A DNA stretch of 64,000 nt from Magallana gigas (Eukaryota). Shown piece after piece: positions 1,803 to 8,960 of the stretch (position 1 is the first letter of the stretch; the number at the start of each line of letters is the position of its first letter). Under the pieces are notes generated by a model, which was given only the letters and a program-made list of their open reading frames with translations, did not search any database and was not told where the DNA came from. The DNA lies in NCBI RefSeq assembly GCF_963853765.1, contig NC_088859.1, forward strand, positions 13,578,001 through 13,642,000, in the 5' to 3' direction. Made by a program: the position numbers and the translations under genes.

Positions 1803-2015
1803 ATGTATTTATTAAAGGTATGATGACACGTGTGTCTATCGAACACGTGTTTTTGTTTATTTATATTTATACCGGAAACCAAATTTGATTGGTTTCTATA
1901 ATAAGTATTTCACCTGTTATACAGGTATTTAAATTAGAGAGGCGCGACTTCTCGTGTTAAGTGAATAAAGAATTTAGCGCCATTCGAAGGCTCTCTCTTC
2001 GTGCAGTTAGACGTG
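1803..2015 (+). repeat. Split direct repeat A1 (213 bp; partner A2 at 6422-6634)
   Basis: Direct comparison by eye shows 2 substitutions (1882 A vs 6501 G; 1946 G vs 6565 A). Confidence 0.95.
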
Positions 2016-2032
2016 TTTTGGTTAGCTTCCTC

Positions 2033-2780
2033 ATGGCAGATAAAAGCGACGAAGAGATGCTCGAAGAAGTTATCATAACCCCAGGAGAAACTACAAACAA
2101 TTCTTTCGCTTTGACTGATGCCGTGAAACTGCTGACATCAACAATAAATTCTCAATTTCAACAGTTAGCTGAAAAATTACAGGAAGACAGCACAAACTCT
2201 GCACAGTTGCTCAAGAAAAAGCTGAAAGATAACATCGCCGGAAAGCTCAAGTTCGAAGGTAACAGAGTGCAATACATATTCAACGAAGAGTGTATTGAAG
2301 AACTTGATAAGTTAAAAGATTTGTCTTCCAACGATAAAGATACTGTTAAACGTTTGAGAGAGAAAATTAACACAAGACAAAAGCATATAAGAATTGCAGA
2401 TGGGTCACCAGCTGGGTGGAAAACGGTACAGGAGTACCAACTCAACGATGTGGCTGAAAACTCGGACGACGAGAAACGAATCCGCAGTGCAGAAAACAGG
2501 GCGCTCAAACAGACGAAACGGGAAGAAGTCCCGGTTCTCTCCTTATCTCAAACCTGCACAAACAGCTGCGGCTGGTTCTCCTGCTCAGCTGCCTTCTTAT
2601 GGTCTGCAACAGCAGAACAACGTCCTACAGACAGCAAACCCATTCCTTCAGCCCTTTCGTGCAGCTAGCAGGCGCACACCGCAACCAAGTGACGTCTGCT
2701 ACAAATGTTTCCAAACGGGACACTGGAAATCAAGATGCCCCTCTCAGTTCGGCAGCACTGCGCCCTCCTCCTCAAAATGA
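2033..2780 (+). CDS. Gag-like ORF1 with C-terminal CCHC zinc knuckle, broken by a +1 frameshift near 2519-2523
   Basis: MADKSDEE... reads to AENRALKQTKR. The +1 frame continues KKSRFSPY...CYKCFQTGHWKSRC (CX2CX4HX4C) to the stop at 2780. Confidence 0.85.
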
Positions 2781-4800
2781 AGTTGATGATAAGTATTTAC
2801 TCAGTTTTGACATGTTTGATCAATGTAATGATAATGATATCTTAATGAAAGAACATATTCAATTTTTTGATGAAATGAATTTTAGTGGTTCAGAAACCAA
2901 TCAAGGAATAAAGAAAAGCTTGTCAAAGAATTTTAATTTCTGGAAAAGAATAGGTACTTATGATCAAATCTTGCGTATTATTGAGCACGGGTATCATATC
3001 AATTTTGAACAAAATCCCCCCAAGATATTTCTAAAGAATAACAAGTCCGCTGAATCTAATTCTGATTTTGTTTCAGATAGCATTGGTGAATTGCTGGAAT
3101 CAGGTTGCGTTGTACAGGTTCCGTTCAAGCCTTTTGTTGTCAGTCCTTTGAGTGTAGCTGAGAACAGGGAAAAGAAGCGTCTAATTTTAGATCCAAGTGT
3201 TTTAAACAACTATATAAAGAAAGAAAAGATTAAATTTGAAGATTACAAAACGGCTTTACAATATTTCAATAAAAATTGTTTTTTAGTTAAGTTCGATTTG
3301 AAATCCGGATATCATCACATTGATATTAGCAAAGAATGCCAAACATTTTTAGGTTTTCAATGGAAAGAAAAATATTATTGTTTTACGGTACTACCTTTTG
3401 GTCTATCGAGCGCACCATTTGTATTTACTAAGTGTCTTAGATCTATGGTTAGATACTGGAGAGCATGTAACATCAGAATTGTTCTGTATTTAGACGATGG
3501 TTTAGTTATGGCTCAGACGTTTGAGGAATGTCAAAGTATTTCAGATTTCATACAAAAATCCCTGGAACAGGCCGGTTTATTTATTAACCATAAGAAATCT
3601 GTTTTCAGTCCAGTGCAAGAAATTGAATGGCTTGGCATAATTTGGAATTCTATAGAATTTAATATTTCCATTCCAGAAAGAAGAATAAAAGATGTGGAAG
3701 AGACATTATCTAGATTTATCGATATGTTACCTCATGTTTCAGCAAGATGTCTGGCAAAGGTTGCAGGAAAGACCATGTCTTTACATTCTGTTTTAGGAAA
3801 CATATGCAGATTAATGACCAGATTTTCTTACATGGAGATTGTTTTAAGGAAATCTTGGGATTCAAGACTTAATCTCAAATTTCAGGAAAAGACAATTAGA
3901 GAATTGCGATTTTGGTTACAAAACGTACGTAATTATAACATTAGAAAGCTTGCAGATACTGGTCCAGAATGTATTATTGTTTATTCAGATGCTAGTAACG
4001 TTGCAGCGGCGGCCTGCACGGTTGGGGTAGACGAATCGAAATTTCACCTGATGTGGAACGAACAAGAAGCGCAAAAGAGTTCCACCTGGCGGGAAATGAG
4101 AGCAATTGAACAGGCTTTGTTTTCATTTAAAAATAATTTAAGCTGCAAGTCTGTCAAATGGTTTACAGATAATCAAAATTGTGTCAAAATATTCGAATCA
4201 GGTAGCATGAAATTAGAACTTCAAAAATTGGCATTAAGCATTTTTGAATTCTGTAAACGACATAACATCTCAGTCAATATTCAATGGATTCCAAGGGAAG
4301 ATAATGAAAAGGCTGATTATCTTAGTAAATTGATAGACTATGATGATTGGGGTGTGTCTGTAGATTTTTTTCAGTTTATTGATTCAAAATGGGGTCCACA
4401 TACCGTCGACAGATTTGCAAATGCAAATAATAAAAAGTTACAAAGATTTAATTCTGTTTTTTGGAATCCTGGCACAGAGGCTGTGAATTGTTTCACACAA
4501 GATTGGAGAAATGAAAATAATTGGCTTGTGCCACCAGTTTCTTTAGTTATTAAAACTATTAAATATGTAATTAATTGCAATGCTAAAGGGACTTTGATTG
4601 TCCCAAAATGGGTTTCAGCGCCTTATTGGCCCTATGTGTTCAAAGATAACTTGAAAACGTTTGTTTACGTATCAGATGTACTCGAGTTTGAAGACAGTAC
4701 AAAGATTTTTATTCAAGGAATGAATAAAAATTCCATATTTGGTTCTGAAAGATTTTATTCATCAGTATTAGCTATTCGGCTGGACGCTACAAAAATGTGA
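2599..4800 (+). CDS. Pol: reverse transcriptase, RNase H and C-terminal DIRS-type methyltransferase-like (MT) domain, intact 733-aa ORF
   Basis: RT motifs KFDLKSGYHHI, LPFGLSSAP, LYLDDG. RNase H motifs YSDAS, STWRE, FTDNQ. MT-like segment WGPHTVDRFAN...NNWLVPP...IVPKWVSAPYWP. Confidence 0.93.
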   Translation: MVCNSRTTSYRQQTHSFSPFVQLAGAHRNQVTSATNVSKRDTGNQDAPLSSAALRPPPQNEVDDKYLLSFDMFDQCNDNDILMKEHIQFFDEMNFSGSETNQGIKKSLSKNFNFWKRIGTYDQILRIIEHGYHINFEQNPPKIFLKNNKSAESNSDFVSDSIGELLESGCVVQVPFKPFVVSPLSVAENREKKRLILDPSVLNNYIKKEKIKFEDYKTALQYFNKNCFLVKFDLKSGYHHIDISKECQTFLGFQWKEKYYCFTVLPFGLSSAPFVFTKCLRSMVRYWRACNIRIVLYLDDGLVMAQTFEECQSISDFIQKSLEQAGLFINHKKSVFSPVQEIEWLGIIWNSIEFNISIPERRIKDVEETLSRFIDMLPHVSARCLAKVAGKTMSLHSVLGNICRLMTRFSYMEIVLRKSWDSRLNLKFQEKTIRELRFWLQNVRNYNIRKLADTGPECIIVYSDASNVAAAACTVGVDESKFHLMWNEQEAQKSSTWREMRAIEQALFSFKNNLSCKSVKWFTDNQNCVKIFESGSMKLELQKLALSIFEFCKRHNISVNIQWIPREDNEKADYLSKLIDYDDWGVSVDFFQFIDSKWGPHTVDRFANANNKKLQRFNSVFWNPGTEAVNCFTQDWRNENNWLVPPVSLVIKTIKYVINCNAKGTLIVPKWVSAPYWPYVFKDNLKTFVYVSDVLEFEDSTKIFIQGMNKNSIFGSERFYSSVLAIRLDATKM

Positions 4801-4845
4801 CTGATTTGATTGTTTTATATTTCAGAGGTGTGTACTGCAGTGAAA

Positions 4846-5200
4846 GGTCCTGGTACACTAGATATATTATTGATAAGGTCCTGGTACGGAGGTACTGCAG
4901 ACGATCGAATTTTTTAAAAACTGCTATTTAATGTTACGGTCCTGGTACTATGGTACTTCAGACGACAATAGTGTTTATATACTTTATACATGTGTATGTT
5001 AGATTCCTTGTGACGGCGTATTTATTGAATGGACCTGATACGATGGTACTCCAGACGATATTAAAATAAAATTATTGGTTAAAATTGATAAAGGTCCTGG
5101 TACGAAAGTATTGCAGATGATTTGGTAAAATTAAATATATTAATTAACGATTTGTTTTATTTTACAGAAAGTAAGAATCATCTGATAAGATGTTCCTGGT
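4846..5200 (+). repeat. Array of 28-bp GC-rich repeats (GGTCCTGGTAC-N4-GTAC-NN-CAGACGA) separated by unique AT-rich spacers
   Basis: Full copies at 4877-4904, 4938-4965, 5031-5058 and 5093-5120. Half or degenerate copies at 4846-4856, ~5002-5020 and ~5191-5202. Spacers between full copies are 33, 65 and 34 bp. Confidence 0.9.
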
Positions 5201-5284
5201 ATATATAATGATTTTGCATACTTAGACTTGATGTTTTTAGATATACATATTCATGTATATGTATTCATTTTATACGATTTGCAG

Positions 5285-6306
5285 ATATATTTTCGGTGGG
5301 GAGGTGGAGTAATCTATTTTCCAGAATACAAGACCCAAAGCTCCAAGAGTTGGCCGAACTCCTACCATCGTATTGTCTTAAAGCAAGGGCCGAAAATACA
5401 ACCAAAAAATACAGGTACACATTTAACAGATTTTCTAAGTGGTGCAAGACTTTTGAACCTCATGTCAAAAATCTACCAACAACAGATGTGAATGTATCTC
5501 TCTATCTGATTTACATTGCGAAAACTTTTAAATCTGCTCCCAAAATAGAAGAGGCTGTTCATGCTATAGCTTGGGCACATAAACTGGCAGGTTTTTCAAA
5601 CCCATGTGACTCAACTTTGGTGAAGTTCACAAAGGAAGGTTGTTTACGTGATACCAGTCAACCCGTTACAAAAAAGGACCCTATAACACCAGAAATTCTG
5701 TCTTCGATCGTGTCTTTATTGGGAGGAAAGCAAGCATCGCTTTTCGATTTACGTACTTGTTCCATTTTTTTGTTGGGTTATGCAGGGTTTCTGCGTTTTT
5801 CTGAAATTGTCAATATTCAAAGATCTCATGTAACTTTTCATGAATCACATTTGAAATTATTTGTTCCCAAAAGCAAAACTGATGTTCAAAACAAGGGTAG
5901 TTGTGTATATATTTCACGCACAAGTTCTCAAAACTGTCCTGTGAACCTACTAGAGAGGTATTTGAATTTGTCTGGTATAGAAGAAAATTCAGATGAATAT
6001 ATTTTCAGACAACTGTCTTATAGCAAGAAATTCAATATTTATAGACTCAAGAAATGTAAGGCACCACTGTCATATACCAGAGTTAGAGAAATTGTTTTGT
6101 CTACATTAAATACTTTGGGTTTAGACTAAAAAAAGTTTGGTGTGCATAGTCTGCGGTCGGGTGGGGCCACGGCTGCCGCAACTTCAGGAGTGAGTGATAG
6201 ACTCTTTAAAAAGCACGGGCGGTGGAAAAGTGATAATGCTAAAGACGGCTACGTTCACGAAAATTTAAAAAGTAAACTTTCTGTTTCCAAAAATCTTGGT
6301 ATATAA
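5285..6306 (+). pseudogene. Tyrosine recombinase (YR) of the DIRS element; no ATG of its own; in-frame TAA at 6127-6129
   Basis: Contains FLRFSEI (catalytic R) and KSKTD (K). After the TAA the same frame continues KKFGVHSLRSGG...KHGRWKSDNAKDGY (H-x-x-R, H/W, Y) to TAA 6304-6306. Confidence 0.92.
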
Positions 6307-6324
6307 CTCTTTCTTTATTTGTCG

Positions 6325-6421
6325 AAACTGCACTCTTGAGAGCGCTTCTGTACCTACACACTGTGTTTATTTATTTTATAAATTATTTATGTTCGGTTGA
6401 GTGTAACGAATTAGAACATAA
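6325..6421 (+). repeat. Split direct repeat B1 (97 bp; partner B2 at 6754-6850)
   Basis: B1 and B2 are identical by eye. B1 directly abuts A2. Confidence 0.95.
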
Positions 6422-6850
6422 ATGTATTTATTAAAGGTATGATGACACGTGTGTCTATCGAACACGTGTTTTTGTTTATTTATATTTATACCGGAAACCA
6501 GATTTGATTGGTTTCTATAATAAGTATTTCACCTGTTATACAGGTATTTAAATTAGAGAGGCGCAACTTCTCGTGTTAAGTGAATAAAGAATTTAGCGCC
6601 ATTCGAAGGCTCTCTCTTCGTGCAGTTAGACGTGGCCCCCACCCACCCACCCTACTTGTTTTCGTGTATCATTTTATTGTAATTAACAATTTTTCTCATT
6701 ATTGTAGAGAACTGAGGAGAACTGAAGATATTTGTCTATAACTTTATTCGAATAAACTGCACTCTTGAGAGCGCTTCTGTACCTACACACTGTGTTTATT
6801 TATTTTATAAATTATTTATGTTCGGTTGAGTGTAACGAATTAGAACATAA

Positions 6851-7101
6851 GGGTGATCACTGCACATCTCCTTAGGAAGTTGTCGTTTTCGTTGTCGGTA
6901 AAGAACAACTTCATGGTTCTTGGTTTTTGGACTCTTCTGATGTTCGTCCCTGCATTGTTCACACATTGGTTGGTGACAAGGATTGCAGTAAAATTGGGCA
7001 TTCCTTTCACAGTCTTCATTGCCACACTCCAAATAGTGCTGCGCTATGACTGGTAACCCTTCGACACTATCAGCTGGAGCTAATGGTTCGGATAACACCA
7101 T
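6851..7101 (-). pseudogene. 5' portion of the DIRS-interrupted TRIM-like gene (B-box1 and start of B-box2)
   Basis: ttcag|ATG at 7101. Reads CGNEDCERNAQFYCNPCHQPMCEQCRDEH...MCSDHP, then runs into repeat B2. Confidence 0.9.
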
Positions 7102-8284
7102 CTGAAATTGTTATTTTGATTGTTGCATGCATATTTCAAAATATTGAAAATAATTTAATTCTATATTGAGAATTCACAATTCTTAACGTATATAAATAAA
7201 TACATACCGGGGCATTAGAGTGAAAGTAAACATTTTATTTTTAATTTTTCTGGTAAAACTGCTATTAATAAACATTTAAAAAGAAATGATTTGTGATACT
7301 TTCATATATTCAATAGGTGTCATAACTATACATACATTATAAAATAATTCGCTCTGGCTCAATCGGCGAAACAACACGCCCTGTCTAATGTGAATGTGTT
7401 CTAAATGTTATCTTCAATTTTGTTATCGCCGCTGCGTCTAGTGAACTGTAAAGGGTCCATTGGTCCTTAATAATATATCTACTATAAAAAAATAGTGCAT
7501 GTATTCGCATAAGTCAATTTTCACTAAATTCCGTTCGTCTCTTTTATATTACGTTAAAGTTTATTTTGAATTTAAGTTAATTATTGGGGGGTTTTTTCAG
7601 GCTTAATTATTAAAGACGTTAATGGTTTTATCTTTGATAAATATTTATTTAAGCGTGTCACGTGCGTTTATATAATTTACTAGAAGCATTGTATGAATTA
7701 ACTGTGTCGTGAAAGATTGTCACGTTTTGCTTTACTTTTATACATATGGGGATTATCAGTTTAATGCCCAACTATATGGATGTTTTAAGTTTCATCGTCT
7801 TTGAAAATTTTCACACTCACTTTCACCACACAATTCATTACTTTCGTTTTGAAAATAAAACTGGCGTATTGGAAAACTGGGGGTGATCAGTGACACAACG
7901 TGTGTTATGAACATTCAAACCACTTGTGGAAAACGAAATGATAGTTTCTCATTTAGAAAATATAGAGAGATGCAATGTGGGGCCTTAACATTATAGAGGC
8001 AACAAAACACTGTGGCCATCATGCAGTTCTTTGAAAATTCAGCTTTGTAGATATACATAAAGAATAAGAATCGATTCCAAAATAAAGGTTAGTTGATATT
8101 TCATGCATTATTTGATATGCACGTCAATATCTAACCGGTAGATACTGATCAAGAAAAGGATGAGAAGGTTTCCCAAACCCTCTTCTTTTCTATGGCGATT
8201 GTTTTCTTCCGAAAGGGGAAATGGCGATCTGTGCTGCAACGCAAAATGATATTAAAAATTGATACAAAATGTAATAAATTCCAA

Positions 8285-8657
8285 TTATTATACTTTCATA
8301 TTGAATACTGAAATCTGATTGGTTTAGACGCAGTTAATAATTGTTCTATTACCCTCAGCGTTAGCAACACACTTGGTAACGGGTAACCCAACGAATTGTT
8401 ACCTGCGCGTAAACTATGCGTGTACGGTTCGTCGTAGAATTCACGTCATTCCTATATAAAATCAGTAAAGTTTTCTTTGAAATTAAGACATTTAGTATAA
8501 TAAAATAAATTTTGCCTGTTTAGAGGGTAACAGTTGAAATTGAAACCCCTCGAATACCATTGTCAACCTCCAATTCGCGTCGGTTGACAATGGTTTTCTC
8601 GGGGTGTCAATTTCAACTGTTACCCTCCCAATATTGCAAACAGGCACTATTTATATA
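8285..8657. mobile_element. Non-autonomous long-hairpin element, copy 1 (more diverged)
   Basis: Colinear with 15124-15496 over ~370 bp and carries the same 3' long imperfect palindrome. Confidence 0.8.
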
Positions 8658-8960
8658 CTAATACATTTTGTATTATCACATGTACATTGTGATTCTGTAT
8701 CTTCGCCAAATGTAACAACACGATATGAAAAAAAGGTAATTTTTTCATAAACTATATTTGTGATATTGAATATGCAGGATGTATTGTGCCTTTCTATGCG
8801 AAAGAAAATTAAAAGTAACATTGTACCAATTTGTCATTAAAAACGTTCACTGTAATTATGAATGCATTTTTAAATATATTTCCTAGAGGGAATAGTGAAA
8901 AAGAATCGACATTTTAAAACTCAGTAAAGCAAGATCTGAAAATATAAATAAGAGTCATCG

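Follow-up and report, generated by a model that had tools for sequence, protein, structure and literature searches.

A 64,000-nucleotide (nt) stretch of the Magallana gigas genome (contig NC_088859.1, positions 13,578,001 to 13,642,000 of the forward strand; hereafter, the window) contains, at 1803-6850, a retrotransposon of the order DIRS whose tyrosine recombinase (YR) is encoded downstream of pol. A single U2-type AT-AC intron that spans pol (2789-5275) very probably gives rise to the RNA for this recombinase, by joining a +1-frame leader, which lies across the 3' half of gag, to the YR exon. The splice sites, their phases, their conservation and their agreement with a public gene model are established at the level of sequence comparison, and a spliced leader-YR message is the predicted outcome.

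The donor (2788/2789; here and below, a slash marks the boundary between exon and intron) sits 8 nt past the gag stop, and the acceptor AC ends at 5275/5276. In eight of ten closely related families, G/ATRAGT scores best among the donors that lie within 50 nt of the gag stop and is in phase 1 of the +1 frame (the hexamer is ATAAGT in seven families and ATGAGT in one); the same eight families have the AC in phase 1 as well, its end lying exactly 11 nt ahead of the conserved I/V-F of YR. Across 22,735 nt of pol and spacer from the same elements, the donor motif is present only 6 times. In the ten families, the +1 frame runs free of stops for 107-276 codons ahead of the gag stop and the +2 frame for 1-144 codons, the extremes (107, and 276 and 144, respectively) stemming from copies with a break in the gag frame. 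The U12-type donor /ATATCCTT and the CCTTRAC branch site are absent in all ten families, each of which has a TTRAY or CTRAY branch-like motif at most 50 nt from the AC position, at varying places. Given that the donor is of the U2 type, the major spliceosome would probably remove this intron. Mixed AT-AG ends are disfavoured (PMC3584512, in the text available), which fits an AT donor picking AC.

These families come from a search of the element's own genome with YR, in which 138 matches were scored among 455 candidates, and with Gag, which yielded 127 matches. From these, 80 stretches, picked for their score, their diversity or a short distance between gag and YR, were taken together with 14 metagenome contigs; viral contigs contained no relative. 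The first 75 loci included 73 with a YR match, which form 33 families at 75% identity. The ten close families have a YR identity of at least 43% and readable ends on both sides, and each is represented by one copy; the 43% cut-off was set after the data had been seen, and a tree of the elements collected here later placed the same ten families on one branch (support 99/98). Two families with one unreadable end (F4 and F8) were left out of the count, and the representatives passed over were L040 (out of phase through a deletion close to the gag stop), L093 (a mis-called stop), and L096 and L104 (degenerate donors).

The two close families that lack both AT and AC, F9 and F11, have A/GTATGT and AG instead, shifted downstream by 4 nt and 1 nt, respectively, in phase 2/2, so that the frame is kept. 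They are sisters in the tree (100/100), which makes the change between AT-AC and GT-AG a single coordinated switch; for the same reason, a Fisher test of this covariation (p = 0.022) was withdrawn. Among the more distant families, GT-AG ends occupy the same place in F12, F21 and F25 (phase 0/0) and in F19 (phase 1/1).

The RefSeq protein models point to the same junction. The AT-AC hypothesis originated from the DNA comparison together with RefSeq models from Mytilus californianus, and the M. gigas model XP_065922975.1 (P0322) was encountered only after the DNA comparison had yielded the junction peptide. This model starts at ATG 2599, contains the predicted junction and ends at the stop of the window copy; among 130 in-frame joins, only that of 2788 to 5276 reproduces it with 0 mismatches. 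Ten 481-residue models of M. californianus read N-G-F-S-D at the junction, whereas the unspliced counterparts read N-D-K-Y (a longer M. californianus isoform) and L-R-F-S-D (an unspliced Mytilus galloprovincialis model). By codon logic applied to the protein models alone, the mussel acceptor cannot be AG. The same junction register is seen in P0106 and in two scallop models (P0079 and P0146).

In two elements without pol, L064, whose split repeats are complete, and L076, gag is accompanied by an open +1-frame leader-YR of 524 and 426 codons, respectively, the layout predicted for the spliced RNA. Neither gave a base-exact alignment to a parent, in the case of L076 at the junction. Among 21 short or broken loci of the window element's own clade, none is a precise intron-loss copy, and breakpoints are elsewhere wherever a full-length partner aligned. 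As a separate observation, L064 (G000:C3, approximately 6521176-6523823) is about 2.65 kilobases long, retains intact gag and leader-YR and all four repeats, and is probably mobilised in trans. Furthermore, a metagenome contig of 2,281 nt (L077) has an identical 123-nt overlap of its ends, as expected of a circle or a tandem array, and consists of a gag-YR unit without pol.

Under the proposed mechanism, removal of 2789-5275 would drop the reverse transcriptase, RNase H and methyltransferase from the RNA, so that the +1 leader frame would continue into Pol when the RNA is unspliced and into YR once it is spliced. The unspliced RNA would supply Gag, leader-Pol and the genome, and the spliced RNA leader-YR, provided that splicing occurs in vivo at a useful level. 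The presumably weak AT-AC ends would leave enough RNA unspliced for Pol and the genome. Translation of the leader might start at an internal ATG within gag or by a +1 shift from Gag; the leader frame contains ATGs at 2400 and 2448, upstream of the gag frame break, and at 2599, downstream of it, the last being the start of the RefSeq model. The leader in the pol frame often includes a hydrophobic run rich in leucine and valine (2560-2600 in the window, and in relatives), as do models from Amphiura and Mytilus.

Several observations weigh against this reading. The RefSeq models may derive from alignments of proteins of related species; to our knowledge, the NCBI pipeline takes AT-AC introns only from alignments. 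The families are related, and binomial and Fisher values therefore overstate the case, and the AT-AC group is recovered as a clade with a support of only 84/91. In F14, the donor is AG/ATAAGT, and most copies are without an in-frame AC partner. In F11, two other donors outscored the paired one, and one of these is in frame with the CAG that ends at 5284; the F9 acceptor (AAG) was picked by eye. Finally, this CAG, 9 nt downstream of the AC, is conserved in all ten families, more often than the AC itself. It also fits the junction of the Mytilus X1 model and of oyster models whose donors lie inside pol. Taken together, its conservation and this fit suggest that both acceptors are probably real, the CAG probably being a second acceptor that serves GT donors within pol.

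The conserved CAG opens the way to a different interpretation, namely a GT-AG splice from 2792/2793 to CAG 5284, after which YR would start at ATG 2777 or 2786 by stop-restart, almost without a leader. Both the GT at 2793 and the CAG are found in all ten close families, a nearby ATG shares the frame of their join in eight of the ten (read by eye), and the same A/GT is in frame with CAG in the families with fused gag and pol (F23 and F30-F32). However, such an ATG is missing in F6 and F9, the fixed AC and the AC-to-AG shift are left unexplained, and the join 2792>5285 appears in no model, RefSeq P0322 and P0043 included. This explanation is very improbable as the main route, although the join of GT 2793 to CAG could produce a minor second isoform. 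In F30-F32, the same hexamer as in F14 lies in phase 0, and the simplest in-frame join, of its GT and the CAG, yields a Gag-YR fusion. In the fused elements (L066-L071 and L106, families F23 and F30-F32), Gag and Pol share one frame and (A/T)TAAGT is located approximately 8-12 codons past the zinc knuckle; the GT of this motif shares the frame of the YR acceptor, predicting a choice between Gag-Pol and Gag-YR by splicing.

RNA reads also count on the opposing side. The joint 2788>5276 is not seen in the four mapped runs, where raw depth at both sites is 0-1.1; three of these are raw runs sampled at approximately 1 in 100, with 32, 112 and 67 reads placed, too few for junctions. In run X1, one unbroken contig covers 2649-5414 at a depth of 22.7 and represents only the unspliced path; this run may contain DNA, and contigs lose rare forms. 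The exclusively unspliced path across pol in X1 is compatible with translation of YR from unspliced RNA, by a non-AUG start, internal entry or reinitiation, in which case the splice-like motifs would serve some other role. Frameshifting has been suggested as the route in Ngaro elements (Poulter and Butler 2015, cited in the accessible part of PMC13003380). Yet YR does not overlap pol in the window element, from which it is separated by a 486-nt spacer with stops, and the donor and acceptor phases agree across families that use three different phases. We regard translation from unspliced RNA as decidedly improbable, and removal of the pol-spanning AT-AC intron as the best explanation.

The idea that splicing skips pol and thereby supplies a start to a YR frame without any methionine (5212-6306) was put forward in an earlier note on this DNA, and it is this part that stands. 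The note proposed a Gag-microexon-YR isoform, in which a donor at 2258 after Gag residues 1-75, a microexon at 4826-4852 and the acceptor at 5284 would be combined. The motifs are present as described, namely ATG 2033, GAAG/GTAAC at 2258/2259, CTGAT at 4801, TTTCAG ending at 4825, the 27-nt segment followed by GTAC, and tttgcag/AT at 5284/5285, and the pieces add up to one frame (226 + 27 + 1022 = 1275 nt) with an internal stop at 6127-6129. The acceptor region has held up insofar as the CAG occurs at the same place in all ten close families, but the partner of the AT donor is the AC 9 nt upstream. The donor, leader, microexon and main acceptor of the isoform have not withstood comparison. The donor GT is present in three of the ten families and missing from the nearest one; it is found at 8 of 31 mapped loci (of 41), which is the chance level, with GGT as the glycine codon of gag in 22 of 83 cases. 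An equivalent stop-free exon immediately 3' of the pol stop exists in one family of ten, and the segment 4826-4852 terminates in one of five CCTGRTRC motifs of the spacer repeats. The conserved sites give a leader in the +1 (pol) frame with the donor at 2788/2789 instead of Gag 1-75. The junctions 2258>4826 and 4852>5285 are not found among reads of the four mapped runs; X1 contigs cover 1803-2448 and 2649-5414 without a break, and depth is not raised in the bins with 2258, 4825 and 4852. The microexon peptide is found in none of the 336 fetched proteins. On the other side, a distant hemichordate element, from Saccoglossus, has Gag-N-to-YR models (P0228 and P0321) that differ in their junctions and have the donor approximately 30 codons further on, and a Pinctada model joins whole Gag to YR (P0122). 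The Saccoglossus models suggest that such an architecture may occur in other lineages; for the window element, it is extremely improbable. The gag frame break near 2520, the split direct repeats, the AT donor and the AC acceptor are additions to what the note described.

A putative second intron, with GT-AG ends, leads from inside YR to a terminal acceptor and is represented by one X1 contig. The joint 5414>6708 has a depth of 12.3, against 11.5 for the unspliced path through YR, and its short side is 28 letters long. The acceptor, a T-rich YAG in the A2-B2 spacer, is present in all seven close families with this spacer printed, and the donor GT in seven of ten; the Mytilus X3 model P0157 has the same kind of ending with a nearby donor. 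RNA spliced in this way would encode Gag and Pol and lack B1-A2, and so would be a message for translation only. A DNA deletion in the X1 sample is a possible alternative source of the joint. With moderate confidence, we favour the broader view that animal Pat1-like elements follow an alternative-splicing programme based on a single transcript, with unspliced RNA, leader-YR RNA and RNA from which a terminal intron drops YR and the internal repeats, and that the AT-AC ends are a selected throttle on integration in one large clade.

Table. Features of the retrotransposon in the window, with positions counted from the first letter of the 64,000-nt stretch
Feature	Positions	Strand	Remarks
Whole Pat1-like YR retrotransposon	1803..6850	+	5,048 nt; without target-site duplication; some individuals without the insertion
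Split direct repeat A1	1803..2015	+	213 nt; 99% identity with 6422-6634
gag	2033..2780	+	CCHC zinc knuckle at about 2694-2744; stop 2778-2780; frame break near 2520
+1-frame leader over the 3' half of gag	2391..2788	+	predicted to be common to Pol and spliced YR
pol frame	2458..4800	+	reverse transcriptase at about 3238-3642; RNase H; Dam-like methyltransferase at about 4339-4671
Putative U2-type AT-AC intron	2789..5275	+	2,487 nt; phase 1; 5' G/ATAAGT, 3' TTTTATAC/G; covers nearly all of pol and the spacer
pol-YR spacer	4801..5275	+	tandem CCTGGTAC...GTAYTGCAG repeats; includes the proposed microexon 4826-4852
Tyrosine recombinase exon	5276..6306	+	stop 6127-6129 in the window copy
Second acceptor CAG (that of the earlier note)	5282..5284	+	phase 1; 9 nt 3' of the AC; ten of ten close families
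Putative second intron, GT-AG	5415..6707	+	begins within YR; terminal acceptor in the A2-B2 spacer; one X1 contig
Repeat B1	6300..6421	+	from repeat comparison
Repeat A2	6422..6634	+	pairs with A1
Repeat B2	6729..6850	+	AATAAA at 6751-6756, absent from B1

The ends of the element (Table) are fixed by the empty-site joint 1802>6851, found in four X22 reads and in a single contig of X1. The zinc knuckle of gag matches Pfam zf-CCHC (E = 1e-4, 22.5 bits, cut-off 20.8), and pol contains RVT_1 (E = 3e-24) and RVT_3 (E = 1.6e-5), followed by a methyltransferase whose match to Pfam Dam (E = 5e-6, 26.7 bits) is just below the cut-off of 28.1. Up to the internal stop, YR matches Pfam Phage_integrase (E = 7e-4); the HxxR, HGRW and tyrosine motifs, to which we presumptively assign their usual roles, lie beyond the stop. 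The window copy is dead, given the gag frame change near 2520 and the stop at 6127-6129; gag is uninterrupted in related families, and natural proteins of the same family (P0001 and P0323) extend to 336 amino acids.

The pol-YR spacer (4801-5275 in the window, and in L033-L062) consists of tandem repeats in most families, many of them hairpin-like, with changes in the arms that look compensatory by eye (GTAC/GTAC, ATAC/GTAT, GTGCA/TGCA); the repeat units in F12, F21 and F25 are unrelated. The repeats have no match in Rfam, and folding of single units is not above that of shuffled sequences (z from -1.2 to +0.3). Possibly, they form an array for packaging or splicing control. An exon of 3 or 31 nt from an internal acceptor at 5167 was rejected, being confined to the window copy and, in the 31-nt form, containing a stop. 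Immediately after A2 (6635-6660), most close families have a CCCACCCACCC tract that may relate to priming of reverse transcription.

The insertion splits a TRIM-like coding sequence on the minus strand (303-1802 and 6851-7110) with B-box zinc fingers, a coiled region and an NHL/beta-propeller, for which Pfam matches are weak; the empty allele of this locus is present in RNA runs X22 and X1. Elsewhere in the window, a long inverted repeat (8484-8675) with 46-nt arms of 91% identity and outer arms of 38 nt is probably a small non-autonomous DNA element.

For the expression of recombinases of the DIRS order, the accessible literature offers the frameshifting proposed for Ngaro, and the present comparison gives exact predicted junctions for an element of a farmed bivalve. 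If correct, it redefines the YR protein, to which an alternative-frame leader would be fused, with consequences for both the biochemistry of the enzyme and its annotation. In addition, the families offer a natural example of a U2-type intron that has switched between AT-AC and GT-AG ends while staying in frame, and an instance of a parasite holding on to a rare, presumably weak splice signal. Should the splicing programme be real, these elements would be a large unrecognised source of U2-type AT-AC introns in molluscs. A literature search found no spliced YR RNA in DIRS-order elements and no AT-AC intron in a transposon, although an earlier mention is possible. The main text of PMC4157794 contains the word "intron" 0 times, no splicing route to YR is described in the text available, and "intron" and "splic" occur 0 times in the available text of PMC3783388.

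By its set of features, the element is assigned to the echinoderm form of the Pat1-like retrotransposons (PAT group, order DIRS), for which a mollusc and a cnidarian are reported hosts (Szitenberg et al. 2014, PMC4157794, in the text available). It shares with that form the A1...B1-A2-B2 split direct repeats, whose inner pair lies 3' of YR, the Gag zinc knuckle, the order of reverse transcriptase, RNase H and methyltransferase, and the orientation of YR, which open reading frames and Pfam matches place in the same direction as pol. Ngaro elements have the same repeat layout with YR downstream of the reverse transcriptase and RNase H but no methyltransferase, and the Dam-like domain thus excludes them; moreover, the Ngaro YR overlaps these domains and is thought to be reached by frameshifting (PMC13003380, in its accessible part), whereas the window element has a spacer and the predicted intron. 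Dirs1-like elements have inverted terminal repeats together with an internal complementary region and are excluded by the direct repeats; no terminal inverted pair is found among the 25 longest repeats listed.

Outside DIRS, one transcript that is either kept whole or spliced, so as to balance proteins and genome, is a strategy of long terminal repeat (LTR) retroelements. Retroviral and gypsy env and foamy-virus pol are expressed from spliced subgenomic RNAs. In Ty1/Copia, a short Gag RNA is produced by splicing (PMC5580714, in the text available). Unlike these cases, the predicted spliced product here is the integrating enzyme, with an alternative-frame leader in common with Pol and with AT-AC intron ends. 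The donor /ATAAGT is the consensus of metazoan U2-type AT-AC introns, a few dozen of which have been counted, in host genes (PMC5029451, as far as its text is accessible). The window intron resembles these host introns in the donor, in the AC and in the lack of a U12 donor and branch site (available portions of PMC5029451 and PMC3584512) and differs from them in that it is part of a mobile element, extends over a coding gene and is retained in at least eight families.

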